DNA from: a virus
Taxonomy: Duplodnaviria; Caudoviricetes
IMG/VR virus record: IMGVR_UViG_3300035492_000099
Span: 1-53,111 of that record
Strand: one strand, 5' to 3'
Length of the DNA: 53,111 nucleotides
In this document: piece by piece, positions 15,122-26,000 of the stretch
Layout of the letters: each line of letters starts with the position of its first letter
How positions within the stretch are numbered: position 1 is the stretch's first letter
The notes under the pieces: generated by a model
Database searches by the model: none
Told to the model about the DNA's origin: nothing
What the model saw: only the letters and a program-made list of their open reading frames with translations
Made by a program: the position numbers and the translations under genes

Positions 15122-15478
15122 ATGAATAATCTACGAATTGTGCGCTATGCACGTCCTAAACAAAAAGAAATTCATAACGATAACCTATACGGAATCACTT
15201 TCGTATATGACATTGATTATGAAGATCGTATCGTATGGGCTTCTTGGTCTATATGTAATGGGGACAACTTTGAGAAGAAGGTTGGTGTTGAGCAGGCCCT
15301 TAAACGAAAGAAGTTAACATTTCCTTTAGACGATGTTAAAAATACAGGGCTTACAAAAGCATTTATGAACCGATTGTTTGGAAAAGATGTTGGTGGTATG
15401 GTGGTTGGAAATTATACCCTTATGCACCATGTGCTTTCTGAGGTTACACGCTATATTAACAGTGAGAAAACAATATGA
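15122..15478 (+). CDS. Hypothetical protein
   Basis: RBS AAGGAGA; WSICNGDNFEKKVG. Confidence 0.7.
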   Translation: MNNLRIVRYARPKQKEIHNDNLYGITFVYDIDYEDRIVWASWSICNGDNFEKKVGVEQALKRKKLTFPLDDVKNTGLTKAFMNRLFGKDVGGMVVGNYTLMHHVLSEVTRYINSEKTI

Positions 15479-18083: not shown

Positions 18084-18652
18084 AAATTGAATTTAGAAAG
18101 AAAGAAGCGAATAATGGATAATGAACAGAAGCGCAATTACGACACTATTATTGAATTTTGTATTCCACAGTTTCGTAGTGGGAATGGCATCCCTGTGACA
18201 CGTAACACTGTGTCTCGGGAAGATTTGTACAAACTGTTAGACTATGTTTTGGAGATTTGGATCGATGATTAGTTATATTAAAGATTTGTTTAGTGAAGTG
18301 CGCCCTGAAATCAAACATCTTGCAGAACGTCTTAAAGAAGGAGATATTTACTATGATGTTTTTACGGGCCTGTGCAGATATGAAATTGAAAGCCTTGTAA
18401 TGAAAATAGAGAGTGTAAAGGAATTGACAAACTCCTATCCATAGAATTTAGAGCTTTCTATAAAATAATATAGGCAATTGAGACAAGAATTGGATGATGT
18501 CCTGCGATATGCCTGTGATAACACTGTGAATACGTTCATGGGAATTCCCATTGTAATTAAAGAACAGAGCAATTAAATGCGTCACACTATTGGAAATCTT
18601 TAGAATAGAACATAGCCCCCACAAGGGGCTATTAACATTTCAAAGGAACATA

Positions 18653-19930
18653 ATGCAACAAGAAAATAAAACAACATCAATAAGCGTTTTAGATGCTCCT
18701 ATGGGCACAGGAAAAACAACAGCTATTATTAATTGGATGAATAAAAACCCAAACAAGAAATATCTATATGTAAGCCCTATGTTAACGGAAGTGGAGGAGC
18801 GTATCCCCACGGCCTGTGCAGGTCTAGAGTTTGTCTATCCAACAATGAAATATAACAGTGATACTGGTGTATCTTCTAAAGGCTATTCTTTATTGTGCTA
18901 TTTACGAGAAGGAAAGAACGTAGCCTTTACACACGCCTTATTTAAGGAGATGACGCCTGAACACACAAAATTAATCAAAGAAGAAGGGTACACTCTAATC
19001 ATTGATGAAGAGATTCCTTTCATCGACCCCTATGATGGGTATTACAAAAGAGATGATATTGTCTCTTTAGAAAGCAAAGGGTTTATATTTGTTAATGAAG
19101 ACAACCTAGGGAGGGTGGAGTGGAAATGGGATGATATGCTTCCCAACACAGCCTATCAGGATTTACGTAGAATGTGTGAGATGGGACATTTGTATTGTGC
19201 AAGAGGTGAAAGAAAGATGCTTGTAACCCACCTACCCATTTCTTTGTTAGAATGCACAAAAGAAACAATCATTCTCACCTACCTGTTCAAAGGCAGTGTA
19301 ATGAAATCTTTCTTGGATATACACAACATCTGCATCAACAATTTAGTTGACACACATCCAGAAATAGATTTCTCATACGATCTTACACAATGGAAACAGA
19401 ATGTAAGAAACCTTGCAACACTGACTGATAGTCCATCAACACTGCAAATAAAAAGAAAGAATATGAATATGACATCTAACTGGTTTACTAAAACAGCAAC
19501 AAAAGATGAATTATCTTTTCTTGGTAAGGCTATACGTTCTATCATACAAAAACATGGCAGGGAAAACATCTTATTAACAACAAAGAAATCTTCATTGATG
19601 AGGAGAACAAGGGATAACAAATCAAACACAAGGTGTATCCTTCCAAAAGGATTGAACGTAGATGGTTGCTTTCTACATTCAGGAGCCAGAGCAGTGAATG
19701 ACTACGCAGACAGAGATGTAGCTATACATGCCTATAACAGGTATTTACACGTATCAACAAAAGCCTATCTACAAGACTATGGCACTCCTCCAGAGGATGA
19801 TGATTATGCCTTATCAGAGATGGTGCAATGGCTTTGGAGAACAGCTATACGTAATAATCACCCAGTTACATTCTACATATTTTCTGACAGAATGGAGCAG
19901 ATTTTAAAGGAGTGGCTTTACGACAGCTAG
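18653..19930 (+). CDS. SF2 helicase-like / origin-binding-like protein
   Basis: DAPMGTGKTT Walker A, LIIDEE Walker B, MVQWLWRTAIR motif VI-like; ATG at 18653 after AAGGA. Confidence 0.7.
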   Translation: MQQENKTTSISVLDAPMGTGKTTAIINWMNKNPNKKYLYVSPMLTEVEERIPTACAGLEFVYPTMKYNSDTGVSSKGYSLLCYLREGKNVAFTHALFKEMTPEHTKLIKEEGYTLIIDEEIPFIDPYDGYYKRDDIVSLESKGFIFVNEDNLGRVEWKWDDMLPNTAYQDLRRMCEMGHLYCARGERKMLVTHLPISLLECTKETIILTYLFKGSVMKSFLDIHNICINNLVDTHPEIDFSYDLTQWKQNVRNLATLTDSPSTLQIKRKNMNMTSNWFTKTATKDELSFLGKAIRSIIQKHGRENILLTTKKSSLMRRTRDNKSNTRCILPKGLNVDGCFLHSGARAVNDYADRDVAIHAYNRYLHVSTKAYLQDYGTPPEDDDYALSEMVQWLWRTAIRNNHPVTFYIFSDRMEQILKEWLYDS

Positions 19931-19939
19931 AGCTTCATT

Positions 19940-20049
19940 TTATGTTGTATTTTAACAGCATCCAAATTATACTTTGTAACTTATTGATATATATGATATA
20001 ATTTTCAATATCCTTGAAATACAAAGTAGTGTGTTAAAATACAAAATAA
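19940..20049. repeat. About 110-bp imperfect inverted repeat containing an IHF consensus site
   Basis: TTATGTTGTATTTTAACA / TGTTAAAATACAAAATAA, TACTTTGTA / TACAAAGTA; TATCAATAAGTTA on the minus strand at 19977-19989. Confidence 0.65.
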
Positions 20050-20400
20050 CATTACAAAATAATGTAAATATACATGGGAATAACGAATATATCCTATGAA
20101 CAACATAGTCTATATTCTATGGGAAACCATTTCCCAATTCCCCTATAAAAGCATATAGCAATTAAATATTAATTCCTATATTCCAAATATCAAAATATCC
20201 TTAGAACATCTCTTTAAAACATCTATAGGGCTGCTAATATTCGTCGCTTTAGTGTCTGGTCTTAACGCCCCAAGGCGTAGCCCTATCACATATTACCATA
20301 ATTGTCAAATATCCTAGTGTAACAGAATATTTATTACGTAACTAATTGTAAATCTATTTGACTATTCTTTGAATATATGCTATAGGGCATTAGCCCTATC

Positions 20401-20540
20401 GAGAATGATTCTCATTCTCTCATAATATTAACATCATTCTCCTTTATCATTGTTTCACATGAAACATTGTAAATAGAAATCATTCTTATTTGTATTACAC
20501 TGTTATAATGTAATAATGTAAATGAGAATAATTGTTATTT
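20401..20540. promoter_or_regulatory. Fur-box-like sites (left cluster)
   Basis: GAGAATGATTCTCATTCTC (20401-20419, 15/19 to GATAATGATAATCATTATC), AATAGAAATCATTCTTATT, AATGAGAATAATTGTTATT. Confidence 0.6.
20451..20466. promoter_or_regulatory. parS-like site 1
   Basis: TGTTTCACATGAAACA, 15/16 to TGTTTCACGTGAAACA. Confidence 0.7.
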
Positions 20541-20661
20541 GTGTTTTATTGTACCTGTTGTGTAAAAACAACAGCTATTAAATGTAACTAAGTATTTTCT
20601 TTGTTAAACAATTGTAAATGTAACAATACATTTAAATTGTAACAGAGTGTAATTGTCCTTG

Positions 20662-20710
20662 ACAACCACTATATCTTGTGGTTGTTACAAAGTGTAACAC
20701 TATATAGTGT
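20662..20710. promoter_or_regulatory. NrdR-box-like palindromes
   Basis: ACAACCACTATATCTTGTGGTTGT and ACACTATATAGTGT. Confidence 0.55.
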
Positions 20711-20770
20711 GTAACAGAGTGTAAGAGGCTTAGTCCATCCATACCTTACGGCATGTATTCCCTGCGCTAT

Positions 20771-20786
20771 TGTTCCACGTGAAACG
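20771..20786. promoter_or_regulatory. parS-like site 2
   Basis: TGTTCCACGTGAAACG. Confidence 0.7.
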
Positions 20787-21046
20787 TGGATTATATAGGC
20801 TTATTCCCTACCATAGGCAATTACGCCAGTTTACATCAAAAGATATTATATGTAATTACATTATATAAATTTATATATTGTTCTTTTCTTATATATCCTT
20901 TTGTTATATAAATCTAATGATTTATTCCCTGTTTTATTTGTATTGTTTTTGTGTACAGCCGTTTTAAGCTGTTTTTATGCTTTCCCTATGGTTACCTATT
21001 GGTAGACAAAGAAAAACGGCGCTATGGCCGTTTAAATCGTTTCTGT

Positions 21047-21295
21047 TTAGTCTTCCCCGTGATTGAGTATTCTTTGCAATTTATCTATTGTAACCCTTAA
21101 CTTGTCTTTGTCTTCCATCCATGCGAGCAGCGCTTTGTATTCTTGGTTTCTTGTTATGTCTAATTTCGCAAGCTTTAAAAGGCCGTCTAGCTCTTCCCCA
21201 AGAATATCGTCAGAGTGTTGCTTTGCCTCTTTTTCGTTAGTAAACAGTTTTCCATCGTATGTTTGGAAGCATTCAACAATTTTGTAATTCATCAT
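21047..21295 (-). CDS. Hypothetical early-region protein
   Basis: FQTYDGKLFTNEKEAKQH; last ORF of the minus-strand cassette. Confidence 0.65.
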   Translation of the reverse strand: MMNYKIVECFQTYDGKLFTNEKEAKQHSDDILGEELDGLLKLAKLDITRNQEYKALLAWMEDKDKLRVTIDKLQRILNHGED

Positions 21296-21539
21296 TTAAT
21301 TACCCCGCTACTAACATGCTATTGTTTTTTATATTAATATTCATGATTTAACCCACTCATATTCACAATAAACCAAATAAGCTTTAGCTAAAAATGGTAA
21401 TGATAAAAATTGTCTTCAGCAAATAATCTTATCATATCCATAATAGGCTTGTCTGCATATTCCGGGTATGCTTTATGTACATCCCTTAAAAGGCTTTCTG
21501 TCCTGATAACCCAATTTTCCGAAAACGGATTGTAATACA

Positions 21540-21788
21540 TTATAAAAGCTCCTTCGGTTTAATAAACTGTATTTCAGTAAACCCGCAATTGTAGGCGTGC
21601 AATGAGGCTTCCGCAACTATATCTGTATACTGGTAAGCTTTACCTGGTGAATCACTTTGTACAAAGCTTTTAATAACTTTGTTGTAACACTCTACGCTTG
21701 CACGCCATTGATATGTACCAAAAGCTTGATAAAGTCTAATTTTACATTTCATTTCCATTCCCCAAAAAACAACTCGGACAGGTAGCAT
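21540..21788 (-). CDS. Hypothetical early-region protein
   Basis: ORF in the minus-strand cassette; start uncertain. Confidence 0.5.
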   Translation of the reverse strand: MLPVRVVFWGMEMKCKIRLYQAFGTYQWRASVECYNKVIKSFVQSDSPGKAYQYTDIVAEASLHAYNCGFTEIQFIKPKELL

Positions 21789-21925
21789 ATGCCAGCGCCA
21801 ATACCTGCAACCACCATTGTAATAAAAGCTGCAACCACTACCGCGAAAAGAATATTACCGAATAACATATTAAATACTCCTTTTGAATGGAAAGCCCCAA
21901 AGGGCTTTCCGTGTTTAATTACGCA

Positions 21926-22123
21926 TTAACCCTTGTATCCGTAAGCAGTGGCAATTGCTATTTCTCCTGGTGTTAGCTTACGTTCCTTTGACCATTCTTG
22001 AGCCTTTTCCCTTATTTCCTTACCACCAATTGCTTTAACCACTGTTTGCTCGAATTTATTATTACATTTCCCAAGATCAAGAATTAAAGCATCGTGCAAT
22101 TGTTTGATAGACCAAGCTTGCAT
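21926..22123 (-). CDS. Hypothetical early-region protein
   Basis: RBS AAGGAA; directly behind a promoter. Confidence 0.65.
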   Translation of the reverse strand: MQAWSIKQLHDALILDLGKCNNKFEQTVVKAIGGKEIREKAQEWSKERKLTPGEIAIATAYGYKG

Positions 22124-22160
22124 ATTAAATATTCCTTTTTGAATGGAAAGCCAGTATGTA

Positions 22161-22190
22161 ATTCTACTCTTATTTTTAGCTCATGCAAGC
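22161..22190 (-). promoter_or_regulatory. Early promoter
   Basis: GCTTGCAT...TAGAAT, same pattern as 24515-24543. Confidence 0.55.
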
Positions 22191-22275
22191 ATTATTTATA
22201 GGTTTTACAAATTTTTACATTCTGAATTGTTTTGTTACATAATACACAAAAGAAAAGCCACTATAAATAGTGGCT

Positions 22276-22291
22276 TGTTTCCCGTGAAACA
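22276..22291. promoter_or_regulatory. parS-like site 3
   Basis: TGTTTCCCGTGAAACA, intergenic. Confidence 0.65.
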
Positions 22292-22402
22292 TTAAACAGG
22301 ATTATTTGAATATGGAAGTTAACGCAGCGTACACCGGCACTAAAAGAATCGGTGCATACCCCAAACAAACGATAACGGCCAAAATTATGATTAGTGTTTT
22401 CA

Positions 22403-23005
22403 TTAGTAAATTTCGCCGTCGATTGTAAACTTGTATTCGTTGCCTAAAATATAATCTACAATCGCCTCATCGCTCATTAAATATTCATATTCGTTTTCAA
22501 GCTTAGAATAAATTTCTTGTGAAATTGTACGTACAATTTCTGTTATTTCTTTTTCAATTTCGCTGACAGATTGCAGAGTGTTAACACTATGATAGTCTAA
22601 ACTAAAAGCAATCGTGTTTTCGTGTACGTAGTAGTTACTAATTCGTTCTACTTTGCCGTATATTTTATAAAAATATTTTCTTTGCAATTCTTGTAATTGC
22701 TTTGCCGCACCAATAAAAACAGTTTCATTAGGCGCATATTCAATTAATTTTTTAACGCCACCTTTGGCATACTCATAATTTCCCGTAAAGCTTGCACCGT
22801 CGCCTTGCGAACAAAACCCACTAAATTGTATATTGGCATCAGTGAATCCGATAAATTCAAGCATTGTTTTAATATCATCACACGTAGAATACCACCAGTC
22901 ATAATCTAGATAATACGTGTCGTTTTTAAACTTTTCAATGGCTTTGTTTTTAGCATCATCGCTCAATTCGTTAAAATTGAATAGTTCAATAGTGATAGCT
23001 TGCAT
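22403..23005 (-). CDS. Early-region phage protein of unknown function
   Basis: LFNFNELSDDAK, FSGFCSQGDGASFTG, YEYLMSDEAI...NEYKFTIDG. Confidence 0.75.
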   Translation of the reverse strand: MQAITIELFNFNELSDDAKNKAIEKFKNDTYYLDYDWWYSTCDDIKTMLEFIGFTDANIQFSGFCSQGDGASFTGNYEYAKGGVKKLIEYAPNETVFIGAAKQLQELQRKYFYKIYGKVERISNYYVHENTIAFSLDYHSVNTLQSVSEIEKEITEIVRTISQEIYSKLENEYEYLMSDEAIVDYILGNEYKFTIDGEIY

Positions 23006-23006
23006 T

Positions 23007-23384
23007 TTAGTTTTCCCTTACGAATACAAAATAAGCATATACAGAATAATCGTTGTCTTCCGTTTCTTTTTCTAAATCAGTGAAAAACCTACGTTGTCCT
23101 TTTTTCTTTGGCGTTATCCTGTTGACAGCCGCATATGCCGCCTTAGTAAGCTTATCGGCTAATGCTTCACTCTCAGGTGGAATAAACGAATAAGATAATA
23201 GCATGGTGTCGTTATCGTTACCCGCAATAGCGCCATGCTTAATTTCATTTTTAATTGATTGTTTAATGTCTTTTAAAGACATACCATGCCAAACAGGGAT
23301 GGAAACATGCGGTAAATGGTGGCCGCTCCAATAATCCGGTAAGCATGTATCAGCATGGACACACTCGAATTTAATACGTGACAT
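23007..23384 (-). CDS. Hypothetical early-region protein
   Basis: HADTCLPDYWSGHHLPH; abuts the next gene. Confidence 0.7.
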   Translation of the reverse strand: MSRIKFECVHADTCLPDYWSGHHLPHVSIPVWHGMSLKDIKQSIKNEIKHGAIAGNDNDTMLLSYSFIPPESEALADKLTKAAYAAVNRITPKKKGQRRFFTDLEKETEDNDYSVYAYFVFVREN

Positions 23385-23396
23385 TTTAAACCCCTA

Positions 23397-23729
23397 TTAA
23401 AAACCTAAATAAACGATTGTATTGTTATCAGTCACGCCGACAACAAGTGTTTCCTTTTCCAATTGTTCGCTAACATATTCGGTTATTTCTTCTTTTTCTT
23501 CAAGATAATCAGGGACATCAATATCATATTGTTCTACAATATCATCAATTGTGTTTTCCGAGTAGTCGCAACAAATAGCGATAACATAAAGCTCAATTTC
23601 TTGTCCCGTTTCTTCTTCTACGCTTTCCAAGTGTTCAAACAACAATTGCAAACCTTCATACGAAAAATTATCAGGGCGAATTTCCTTGAAAGCATCATAA
23701 AATTGATAAAAGTTAATTGTTTGTTTCAT
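23397..23729 (-). CDS. Acidic hypothetical early-region protein
   Basis: RPDNFSYEGL...VIAICCDYSE; very D/E-rich. Confidence 0.7.
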   Translation of the reverse strand: MKQTINFYQFYDAFKEIRPDNFSYEGLQLLFEHLESVEEETGQEIELYVIAICCDYSENTIDDIVEQYDIDVPDYLEEKEEITEYVSEQLEKETLVVGVTDNNTIVYLGF

Positions 23730-23781
23730 GTCTGAAAATTTCCTATAAGGGAAGAAAAGAGAATTAATTATAACACAAAAA

Positions 23782-24000
23782 TTATTCTTGCACTATTTGA
23801 AATAATGCATTTTCTGCTAATTGGTGCATACCGAAGCTGTCAAGTAATTTACCCATGCGCCACAATGCCAAAACATTGTTAATTTCGGGAATTGAAAACA
23901 AGCTTGATTCGATTATTTCATTCCCGTGATGGTAGCGTAAACGCGCTACGGGTTCATTGTGGTATTGTTTTATAACAATTTCATAATATTGAATTTTCAT
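23782..24000 (-). CDS. Hypothetical early-region protein
   Basis: RBS AAGGGA. Confidence 0.55.
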   Translation of the reverse strand: MKIQYYEIVIKQYHNEPVARLRYHHGNEIIESSLFSIPEINNVLALWRMGKLLDSFGMHQLAENALFQIVQE

Positions 24001-24014
24001 TTTTAAAATCCCTT

Positions 24015-24030
24015 CGTTTCACGTGAAACA
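24015..24030. promoter_or_regulatory. parS-like site 4
   Basis: CGTTTCACGTGAAACA, fills most of a 30-bp intergenic gap. Confidence 0.75.
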
Positions 24031-24297
24031 TTAAAAATTATATGTTTTGCCACCAATTGAAAGCCGTTTAATTGTATCACAATTAACGTTTCTATAAACA
24101 GGCTTTCCGTTATCGTGGCCCGCAATAACGGTAATATATTCTTTTTTGTGGCTTACCGGGTTATGTCCCGTATGCTCAGGATGCAAATAAACTTGCCCGG
24201 TTAACGTCCTTTCTTCGCCGTTTTTCTTGATAAACGTAACACCAAAAAATTTAGCGCCGTTTGCCTTGATTAATGCTTTAATTTCGTTTGCGTTCAT
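24031..24297 (-). CDS. Small SH3/WYL-like-fold phage protein
   Basis: FFGVTFIKKNGEERTL...YRNVNCDTI. Confidence 0.6.
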   Translation of the reverse strand: MNANEIKALIKANGAKFFGVTFIKKNGEERTLTGQVYLHPEHTGHNPVSHKKEYITVIAGHDNGKPVYRNVNCDTIKRLSIGGKTYNF

Positions 24298-24482
24298 GTG
24301 TATAATTCCTGTTTAAACTGTTTGTAGAATTCGGCGTTTTCTTCGTGCAATTCTTTGCCAATATTTAATAACATCATAGCATGAATTGAATTTAGATTGT
24401 AATATTCTGAAAATTTATCTATTGTCAGAAAATTATTTAAATAGTCCAAATGCAATTCTATTAATTGTTTCTGTATGCTCAT
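24294..24482 (-). CDS. Hypothetical early-region protein
   Basis: DYLNNFLTIDKFSEYY; first gene behind the early promoter. Confidence 0.65.
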   Translation of the reverse strand: MSIQKQLIELHLDYLNNFLTIDKFSEYYNLNSIHAMMLLNIGKELHEENAEFYKQFKQELYT

Positions 24483-24514
24483 AACTGGCCCTTGTTTGTT
24501 AACGCATGAGTGAA

Positions 24515-24543
24515 ATTCTACGCATTAAATTTAAAGCTTGCAA
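24515..24543 (-). promoter_or_regulatory. Early promoter
   Basis: TTGCAA-17 nt-TAGAAT. Confidence 0.6.
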
Positions 24544-24741
24544 GCATTCTACACAAAACAATTGTAAGAAAGTGTAAACACTTCGCTAACAGGAAATAAC
24601 GCGCCAGCGTATGCGTGCGCGATTTTAACATAAAACAAGTGTATTGTGAAGCATTATTTTACTTGTTGTATTTATTCAACTGAGGGAAACCCCCTATTTA
24701 CAAGCTAATGGAAAACGTGTTAAAATCACGCGAAAATTGTA

Positions 24742-24816
24742 AATGAGAATAATTCGTATTTATGAAATGTAATGAGAACTATTCTCATTCAGTGTCAATT
24801 GAGAATGATTATCATT
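24742..24816. promoter_or_regulatory. Three tandem Fur-box-like sites (right cluster)
   Basis: AATGAGAATAATTCGTATT, AATGAGAACTATTCTCATT, ATTGAGAATGATTATCATT. Confidence 0.65.
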
Positions 24817-24886
24817 TGCATTCGATATAGTAATATTTCGTTACAAATTTTTAAAATTTCCTCTATAGAAATTTCTATACAAACAA

Positions 24887-25000
24887 GATGCTCCAGCTAG
24901 GACAGGCTCGTTAGGATGCTCCCGTTGGGATGGTCTAGCTAGGATGCTCTGGTTGGGATTCACTGCATAGATGCTCCAATTAGGATAGTCTGGCAGGGAT
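24887..25000. repeat. Degenerate 14-bp tandem repeat, 8 units
   Basis: GATGCTCCAGCTAG GACAGGCTCGTTAG GATGCTCCCGTTGG GATGGTCTAGCTAG GATGCTCTGGTTGG GATTCACTGCATA GATGCTCCAATTAG GATAGTCTGGCAGG. Confidence 0.8.
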
Positions 25001-25360
25001 ATTTTTCAAATAAATTAAAATAGATGGTGTGGTAGGGGGTGCATATAGATATGCACATCAACATTATATTTATATAGTAGCCCTAAAAGGCTCCAGAATC
25101 GCTTGTATTGCATTTTCTATAGATAGGCTAGTGTTCATGTGTATAAAAAGGAAAACGCCTCTAAAGGCGTTTAAATGGCTCCTACATGCTCTAGCTAATT
25201 CCTATGCAAATTTCAAATTTTACATGGAATTTCATAATTGTATGTCAATTGCCATAATTTCATCGACAGCCATAATATTTTCATAATTAATTGTGGAATG
25301 TCATAATTTATATGCAATTCTAAATTGATATGTAAATCGTCATAATATTTTTCCAGAACA

Positions 25361-25549
25361 CTACAGATTGTAATACAACAACCTGTTTGCCTCTTTCATT
25401 GCATTCTCATAGTTAATTTCTAAAGGGCATGGCTCATCATACTCATGCCGATCTTGCCTTTTGTGGTGAAAACTATTGCAAGGAAGATAGGGTGGGCAAG
25501 ATTTGTATAAATTCAATAAGGCTTTTATCAATTCTTCTTCAAGCGTCAT
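25361..25549 (-). CDS. Hypothetical protein
   Basis: Cys/His-containing small ORF with RBS GGAG. Confidence 0.55.
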   Translation of the reverse strand: MTLEEELIKALLNLYKSCPPYLPCNSFHHKRQDRHEYDEPCPLEINYENAMKEANRLLYYNL

Positions 25550-25802
25550 AATTTACTCCCAATTCTAATAGAGAATTTTTTATATCATCTATTTTTTGTT
25601 GAATGTGTCTATGCATTATTTCTCTAACTGCAAGTATAACATCTCTATCTCTACTTCCTTGCAGGGAAGCGTGATTAACTCCGGGAGATGGGTAGTCAAA
25701 CCGAACAACCTCTATCAATTGAGATTCCATTAACTGTTCTTCCAGTATTTTGATTCTCTCAATCATGTGATAAATTTTATCAAAATCATTTTTCGTTAAC
25801 AT
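25539..25802 (-). CDS. Hypothetical protein
   Basis: ORF within the minus-strand operon. Confidence 0.55.
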   Translation of the reverse strand: MLTKNDFDKIYHMIERIKILEEQLMESQLIEVVRFDYPSPGVNHASLQGSRDRDVILAVREIMHRHIQQKIDDIKNSLLELGVNYDA

Positions 25803-26000
25803 GGTTTAGAAATCCCCATCACACTCCTACAAACATCTGCTCTATGAAGGCCAAGGTATTGAGAACTCAGTGTTCCGTCATTCAACATATTTTGGACGAA
25901 CTCTGTTTTGTCCATCCATTCATAATACAGCTTCTTGTATGTGCTCATCTGTTGCCAAAGCGTATATATTTTCTCATATGTATTGACATCAACAACTATT

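Follow-up and report, generated by a model that had tools for sequence, protein, structure and literature searches.

What would four chromosomal centromere sequences do in the DNA of a virulent phage? The question is raised by the IMG/VR virus record IMGVR_UViG_3300035492_000099 (Duplodnaviria; Caudoviricetes), a stretch of 53,111 nucleotides that makes up the whole 53-kb record, is rated ~48% complete, and is referred to here as the window. Between positions 20451 and 24030, it carries four 16-bp palindromes of the parS type, the sequence bound by the chromosome segregation protein ParB/Spo0J. An initial annotation, based on the letters of the DNA, had proposed that these palindromes load the ParB of the host, with outcomes that ranged from positioning, compaction, or shielding of the phage genome to titration of ParB. 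Comparative evidence and the precedent of phage phi29 now strengthen one part of that proposal, namely that the palindromes are chromosome-type parS sites, unaccompanied by phage ParA or ParB and directed at host ParB; compaction and titration are considered less probable. The reading preferred here is that the four palindromes are orphan host-type parS sites through which the phage would use host ParB for segregation or positioning, a reading to which a probability of about 0.5 is assigned.

Sequence, number, and placement of the palindromes

The four sites, none of which is assigned a strand, are (i) parS-1, TGTTTCACATGAAACA, at 20451..20466, with a single central mismatch (CACATG), (ii) parS-2, TGTTCCACGTGAAACG, at 20771..20786, with a mismatch at outer position 16, (iii) parS-3, TGTTTCCCGTGAAACA, at 22276..22291, with one core mismatch at position 7, and (iv) parS-4, CGTTTCACGTGAAACA, at 24015..24030, with a mismatch at outer position 1. 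Each 16-mer is one mismatch away from the chromosomal parS consensus TGTTNCACGTGAAACA. The 14-bp core, GTTNCACGTGNAAC, is exact in parS-2 and parS-4 and has one mismatch each in parS-1 and parS-3. Functional chromosomal sites are variable at these outer positions too, as in parS1 and parS4 of Pseudomonas aeruginosa, which end in C, and natural variants of the chromosomal site have been tabulated (PMC4368675). With one to two changes tolerated, all members of the window set are chromosomal-type 16-bp palindromes, and they are clustered within a few kilobases, spanning 3,580 bp.

A motif scan bears out the four positions and the single mismatches reported in the initial annotation. Its statement that no full copy occurs elsewhere holds even at a looser threshold, with no further copy of TGTTNCACGTGAAACA at ≤2 mismatches in the remainder of the 53,111 bases scanned. 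Counted by strand, the window contains 8 matches to parS versus 0.22 expected; none of 100 dinucleotide-preserving shuffles reached 8, and the shuffle maximum was 4. The sites had also been described as intergenic and confined to 3.6 kb, and all four are indeed non-coding. As the non-coding share of the window is 14–20%, the probability of such placement by chance is ~4e-4 to 2e-3. The GTTTCAC half-site shows no excess in the window (12 occurrences versus 8.4 expected, 5 of the 12 falling within full sites), and the centromere pattern of the Vibrio cholerae chromosome-II type has no match there. All four sites are unchanged in contigs of a near-identical strain from a second DNA run (X2), a strain too similar to the window for selection on the sites to be read.

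A virulent-type phage in which no partition genes were found

The window encodes a large terminase, a Mu-type portal, a family-A DNA polymerase, a DnaB-like helicase, both ribonucleotide reductase subunits, a DNA ligase, a DNA methylase, an endonuclease VII, and a rIIB-like protein, as well as two tRNAs. Its nearest cultured phages by terminase identity are vB_PsaM_M1 (M1, 60.5%), vB_PpS_SYP (SYP, 55.8%), and phiPMW (54.0%), all of which are Pseudomonas phages. The phage belongs to a ~100-kb class, and the known hosts of its clade are Pseudomonas. Single-protein scans of IMG/VR with the window helicase or large terminase returned no relatives. A search with a four-sequence terminase alignment gave 79 related loci, and 34 records of 51–107 kb were scanned.

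No tyrosine integrase was found in 17 records comprising the window, M1, SYP, and 14 of the 15 site-bearing relatives described below. According to the excerpted text of PMC10580904, SYP forms clear plaques and has a latent period of 20 minutes. The description of the phage as lytic is, on the strength of its gene set, the negative integrase search, and the SYP plaques, well supported.

Searches for partition proteins were equally negative. ParB_N (PF02195) was found neither in the window, M1, SYP, and phiPMW (0/4) nor in the 34 relatives, 29 of which are records ≥90% complete, and both HTH_ParB (PF17762) and ParA-type ATPases above cut-off (PF13614) gave 0/17 in the set of records used for the integrase. 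The initial remark that no parA or parB is visible in the window therefore stands. A phage-encoded ParB, which the same annotation had named as a competing recognizer of the palindrome, was not found by the ParB_N or HTH_ParB search of the window and the complete relatives. The sites are regarded as orphans because no parA or parB, and no cognate parAB pair on the same replicon, was found in the records searched. The window, at 48% completeness, is that of a virulent phage without partition genes or an integrase of its own.

Recurrence of the sites in related phages

Conservation in relatives was one of the checks proposed in the initial annotation, and the motif scan now made finds sites in 15 of the 34 long IMG/VR relatives. 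These 15 records hold 28 sites in total (≤1 mismatch), and 14 of the 29 records that are ≥90% complete are positive. A control palindrome of the same composition, read backwards, has no match across all 34 relatives. The positive records include phiPMW itself and one record (G007) whose lone site is doubtful, with an A at the free position. A single site is present in 7 of the 15, while clusters comprise 2–5 sites over 0.2–8 kb. In SYP, there are six matches to TGTTNCACGTGNAACA, five perfect and one with 1 mismatch, two of the six being one site that recurs because it lies in a 351-bp repeat at the ends of the record. Three non-coding parS sites, at 15422, 20515, and 20735 and each with a CACATG core, are present in phiPMW, and M1 has none. 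Multiple host-type parS sites are thus kept in related phages.

Over 262 kb of loci, perfect sites (22) outnumber those with one mismatch (15) and with two mismatches (3), whereas chance would give the opposite. Among 74 half-sites, G2, T3, T4, and C6 are invariant, A7 is present in 73 and C8 in 70, and the free half-site position 5 is only ever T (25) or C (49), yielding GTTTCAC and GTTCCAC. Both are reported half-sites bound by P. aeruginosa ParB, as stated in the excerpted text of PMC7022226. Phages of P. putida-group hosts use TGTTCCACGTGGAACA, which is the published parS of P. putida and P. aeruginosa (PMC4368675; PMC7022226, excerpted text). The sequence of the site is constant among phages whose large terminases are 54–60% identical to that of the window and whose flanks are unalignable.

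On a terminase tree (FastTree, query-anchored alignment, midpoint-rooted), sites are present in 13 of the 18 members of an SYP/phiPMW-like subclade, in 1 of 9 members of an M1-like clade, and in 2 of 9 among the other, deeper lineages. The branch of the window falls into neither the SYP/phiPMW-like nor the M1-like clade.

The window, SYP, and phiPMW each have 2–3 sites in the longest non-coding stretch of the area, located at or next to the point where gene blocks converge, with additional sites within the next 2–8 kb. Crude strand maps of open reading frames (ORFs) suggest the same junction placement in most IMG/VR relatives. The flanking small genes are mostly non-homologous, with 3 tblastn matches from 2 of 35 window proteins against 16 loci, and the only DNA that the window junction has in common with relatives is parS and one other short palindrome. 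The sites recur at the same architectural place even though the small genes around them are mostly unrelated. A terminator hairpin with a T-run begins 0–5 nt past the site at 10 of 36 sites, versus 1% of random positions; others occupy the interval from a stop codon to the following ribosome-binding site.

Three smaller observations concern these genomes. First, the site-less record G011 has an apparent decayed parS pair (L241 13434–13458, 3 mismatches each) ≤2.3 kb from a gene for a conserved 84-aa protein, which suggests loss rather than primary absence. In the stretches fetched around the copies of this gene in the site-less records G011, G016, and G019, no replacement palindrome family was found; in G019, a single pair of other, similar palindromes lies ~100 nt apart. 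Second, the last 351 bp of the SYP GenBank record repeat its first (L015 1–351 = L230 last 351), with a parS inside the repeat. The break of the SYP record falls within the non-coding junction, several IMG/VR relatives start or end a few kilobases from the junction, and the physical genome ends may lie there. Third, the hexamer CACGTG occurs at two places only in the 53-kb window, each within a parS site, and is broken (CACATG or CCCGTG) in the other two window sites and in all three phiPMW sites, which may reflect restriction-site avoidance.

Distribution with respect to the host

Five related phages of the Ounavirinae, which infect E. coli, Salmonella, or Erwinia, are devoid of sites, also with 2 mismatches allowed (0/5). 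The Erwinia host lies outside the Enterobacteriaceae, and its lack of ParABS is assumed. The excerpted text of PMC7022226 describes Pseudomonas as carrying ParABS and Enterobacteriaceae as having no chromosomal par genes. Together with the Pseudomonas-type sites in relatives, the Ounavirinae result supports the earlier expectation of a ParABS-carrying, non-enterobacterial host.

Five more distant phages, three with Pseudomonas hosts and one each with an Acinetobacter and a Rheinheimera host, gave a perfect site in Otagovirus psageK4 only. This site lies at 109–124 of NC_073681.1, near the record start. The other four have two-mismatch matches only, at the rate of the control pattern. The Acinetobacter and Rheinheimera hosts are taken here to carry ParABS. 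The result for these distant phages indicates that the trait is clade-restricted and not universal.

Orphan host centromeres as a proposed means of segregation

Binding of the window sites by host ParB is predicted from their sequence and is considered probable. Given such binding, a benefit in segregation or persistence is slightly favored, by analogy. After injection, host chromosomal ParB would recognize the predicted sites and load as CTP-dependent clamps, forming a partition complex around the junction of the convergent gene blocks. The phage genome would then be positioned and segregated by host ParABS, with or like the chromosomal origin region. Where lysis does not follow infection at once, as in starved, slow-growing, or carrier-state cells, the phage genome would be handed to the daughters. 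Hitch-hiking of this kind is seen as the likeliest benefit because of the analogy with phi29. Pseudomonas forms no spores, and the benefit must therefore differ from the spore entrapment of phi29.

Several observations weigh against this reading. The core is mismatched in two of the four window sites (parS-1 and parS-3). Sites are missing from 19 of the 34 relatives, including the complete SYP/phiPMW-like subclade genomes G011, G016, and G019, and the trait is therefore dispensable. RNA polymerase would run through the sites, which are located within transcription units, ahead of terminators or between cistrons. Position 5 (T/C) tracks the G+C content of the phage, which makes a match to the host variant weak evidence. 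The 20-minute latent period of SYP (PMC10580904, excerpted text) leaves little time for segregation to matter in rich medium. Known hosts are those of the cultured relatives, and a ParB could lie in the remaining half of a genome of which the window represents ~48%.

Comparison with known systems

phi29 is a ~19-kb protein-primed podovirus of a spore former. According to the excerpted text of PMC2731898, its DNA contains five parS sites and is segregated into the prespore by Spo0J. phi29 and Nf, both of Bacillus, resemble the window phage in three respects: they are virulent, have no ParA or ParB of their own, and carry several host-type parS copies. For phi29, the benefit is spore entrapment, tied to Spo0A boxes that halt the lytic cycle. 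The window phage differs from phi29 in that it belongs to the ~100-kb class and has a family-A DNA polymerase, a DnaB-like helicase, and a ribonucleotide reductase of its own, and its sites, unlike those of phi29, cluster at a convergent gene-block junction. Borrowing of host parS is thus already known from phi29, and the sites found here would extend it to ~100-kb phages whose known hosts are Pseudomonas.

An exact-match parS scan of IMG/VR returned at least 119 stretches, and the figures that follow hold among the matches listed. There are 22 records with ≥2 perfect or near-perfect sites (G035–G056, L111–L228), of which 8 carry a phi29-type protein-primed polymerase, so that the scan also picks up the phi29 kind, and none (0/22) has ParB_N. 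The other 14 multi-site records include 116-kb, 77-kb, and complete 59.7-kb records, the type of which is unassigned. Orphan parS may be widespread among viruses.

Chromosomal clusters near oriC, such as those of B. subtilis, P. aeruginosa (parS1–4), and P. putida, consist of the same 16-bp palindrome and its variants (PMC4368675; PMC7022226, excerpted text). The window resembles them in having several copies within a few kilobases and differs from them in that its sites are on a phage, no parAB operon was found, and no known origin adjoins the sites. P1, with parABS, and N15, with sopABC, are temperate plasmid prophages that have their own ParA, ParB, and centromere sequences, and extrachromosomal mycobacteriophages reportedly have a ParABS of their own as well. 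Plasmid prophages and the window phage share a centromere on phage DNA, but that of the window is host-type, and the ParA, ParB, and integrase of a plasmid-prophage cassette were found in none of the 17 records. Noc-binding sites (NBS) of Firmicutes are related 16-bp palindromes, and positions 2 and 7 tell parS from NBS. In parS-3, one half (TTTCCC) looks like the half-site of an NBS; the phage sites differ from NBS in having G at position 2 in 74 of 74 half-sites and A at position 7 in 73 of 74.

Alternative explanations

Multiplying phage sites might instead serve as a sink that titrates host ParB and disturbs segregation, SMC loading, or ParB-dependent transcription. This explanation rests on the same evidence of ParB recognition as the segregation reading. 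Several sites per genome (5–6 in SYP) would multiply with copy number, and the exact position of the sites is loosely kept among variable flanking genes, as expected if the number of sites is all that matters. However, the 7 of 15 positive records with a single site would be poor sinks, a pure sink has no need of the consistent placement at the convergent junction, and a gain from disturbed segregation is hard to see within the 20-minute latent period given in the excerpted text for SYP. Where the sites lie, and how many genomes have only one, are mild arguments against a pure sink, which is considered unlikely.

Somewhat less likely still is that the sites act in the ParB-dependent organization or silencing of phage DNA, by SMC recruitment, condensation, or insulation at the junction, so as to compact genomes or silence small genes. 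Spreading of chromosomal ParB, SMC recruitment, and silencing near parS are known from the excerpted texts of PMC7022226 and PMC10197239, and runs of small genes are flanked by sites in these phages. The neighboring genes nevertheless differ among genomes, so that there is no conserved silencing target.

It is improbable that the palindromes are operators of a phage DNA-binding protein that shares the parS sequence by chance or that evolved as a competitor of ParB. About half of the genome is covered by the window, many small ORFs of unassigned function surround the sites, and matches to a promoter-like consensus overlap parS-1 (one per strand) and parS-3 (one). Despite these matches, none of the four window sites is in operator position upstream of a gene start; they are placed after stops, before terminators, and between cistrons. 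The sequence is, moreover, constant across diverged phages with unalignable flanks and identical to the host site. A family of 84-aa proteins, the best conserved among neighbors of the sites (18 of 37 records), is found near them in the SYP/phiPMW-like subclade. It was rejected as a binder in that it tracks the subclade and not the sites, being present in the site-less G011, G013, G016, and G019 and absent from the site-bearing G001 and G027. A DndB-like protein, SYP gp20, was likewise rejected, as it occurs in SYP only and is absent from phiPMW, M1, and the window, and the ParB_N and HTH_ParB searches gave no match. SYP gp20 (L015 7671–9125) is a 484-aa DndB-family member of the ParB/Srx superfamily, the end of which adjoins a SYP parS. 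No Pfam family was found in ten conserved small proteins that neighbor the sites.

An RNA-level role, in which selection would act on a hairpin of the transcript that serves in a terminator or as a processing site, is very improbable. It would account for the terminator hairpins close to 10 of the 36 sites, and the terminator-adjacent sites do lie inside transcripts, but such adjacency is largely expected from the scarcity of non-coding space. A transcript hairpin would conserve pairing and leave the sequence free, whereas here sequence is kept and not pairing, with no compensatory variants and with 14 core positions fixed. In 7 of 8 terminator-adjacent sites, asymmetry at positions 5 and 12 would give a C-A mismatch in RNA, and an Rfam search of 19000–26000 had no match.

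That the palindromes are chance occurrences or neutral remnants of recombination with host DNA, as the patchiness of the trait (19/34 relatives without it) might suggest, is hardly credible in view of the shuffles (0/100 reaching the count), the reversed-pattern control (0/34), the excess of perfect over mismatched sites, the exclusively non-coding placement in the window, and the recurrence within unalignable flanks.

Implications of a proposed borrowing of host centromeres

Until now, phi29, a phage of a spore former, has been the single model for the use of host parS by virulent phages. Literature searches brought up no account of host-type parS in Plaisancevirus-like or other lytic Pseudomonas phages, and the main text of the phiPMW and SYP papers contains neither "parS" nor "ParB". 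The comparison presented here suggests that phages of this clade borrow the chromosome segregation protein of the host. If this is true in a clade with Pseudomonas-infecting cultured members, borrowing of host centromeres is not tied to sporulation. It would also provide a molecular handle on the carrier or pseudolysogenic state of lytic phages, the existence of which is debated (PMC12768965, excerpted text) and which is relevant to phage ecology and phage therapy. The idea is directly testable, as P. putida, on which phiPMW grows, is routinely used for ParB ChIP-seq and for the genetics of parA, parB, and smc. Host prediction for uncultured phages may be a further use of orphan parS, which would point toward a ParABS-bearing host and away from Enterobacteriaceae.

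The convergent junction and its genes

The non-coding junction at 19931..21046 (1.1 kb, no strand) is ORF-poor and contains parS-1, parS-2, and several repeat families. It separates a plus-strand gene block (~6–20 kb) from a minus-strand block (~21–48.5 kb), and the GC-skew turns there. An SF2-type helicase gene (18590..19930, plus strand) ends the plus block at the border of the junction; its product is assigned to phrog_2467, has yonV-like relatives, and shows a weak Herpes_ori_bp match at its N-terminus. On the other side, small minus-strand genes of unassigned function (21047..24482) are interspersed with parS-3 and parS-4. These small genes yielded no Pfam family at cut-off and no ParB-like protein.

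parS-3 begins 10 nt past the stop of a 33-codon ORF (22302–22403, minus strand), and an intrinsic terminator hairpin with a T-run (22255..22276, minus strand) lies directly downstream of it on that strand. parS-4 occupies the 30-nt gap between the stop of the gene at 24031–24297 and the ribosome-binding site of the gene at 23782–24000, both on the minus strand. The gene at 22403–23005 (minus strand), between parS-3 and parS-4, encodes a 200-aa protein of phrog_5162, which was considered as a site binder and rejected as not ParB-like. Its structural model (pTM 0.84) has its closest structure at a TM of 0.87, in a cluster to which the name "putative antitoxin of toxin-antitoxin stability system" was assigned automatically.

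Repeats in the junction include TGTAACA (six copies), TGTAAAT (five), ATATCCT (five), and TAGGGC (four), each at 9–15 times the expectation based on length. Small hairpins with GCGTAGC-like loops are present as well, as they are in the SYP and phiPMW junctions. Possible roles of the repeat-rich junction are those of an origin, of a packaging site, or of a region of non-coding RNA. A megablast search of 19000–25000 against GenBank phages gave no match.

A Fur-box-like palindrome beside parS-1

The palindrome GAGAATGATTCTCATTCTC, at 20401..20419 (no strand), ends 31 nt before parS-1, has an AATGA-N3-TCATT core, and overlaps a promoter-like site at 20399–20426. A second palindrome of this kind is present in the window at 24801–24819. 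GAGAATGATTCTCATTCTC scores 15/19 against what is taken here to be the Fur-box consensus. Similar palindromes occur near junction parS sites of five relatives (L098 6101, L103 5544, L104 5691, L015 112, and L097 5500), and 6 of 9 Fur-box-like matches over 262 kb lie within 400 nt of a parS. The 14-mer core of GAGAATGATTCTCATTCTC is the only non-parS sequence common to the window junction and the relatives.

By analogy with the Spo0A boxes of phi29, this palindrome may be a second host-regulator site, with its membership in the parS feature uncertain. More speculatively, the parS cluster and the Fur-box-like palindromes might form a Gram-negative counterpart of the Spo0A/Spo0J module of phi29, a doubtful proposal. 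In such a module, a "strictly lytic" phage would sense iron or starvation via Fur or a similar protein and then pause, and its ~100-kb genome would be kept as a plasmid-like episome by host ParABS until conditions improve. If so, orphan host centromeres would be a general marker, readable from sequence, of a hidden carrier state. Orphan sites are also present in an Otagovirus and in the 14 non-phi29-like multi-site records among the matches listed.

A related variant of the locus is represented by a 769-letter contig from DNA run X1, in which 20163–20614, containing parS-1 and the Fur-box-like palindrome, is swapped for 397 other letters. The flanks of this contig are only ~85–90% alike to the window.

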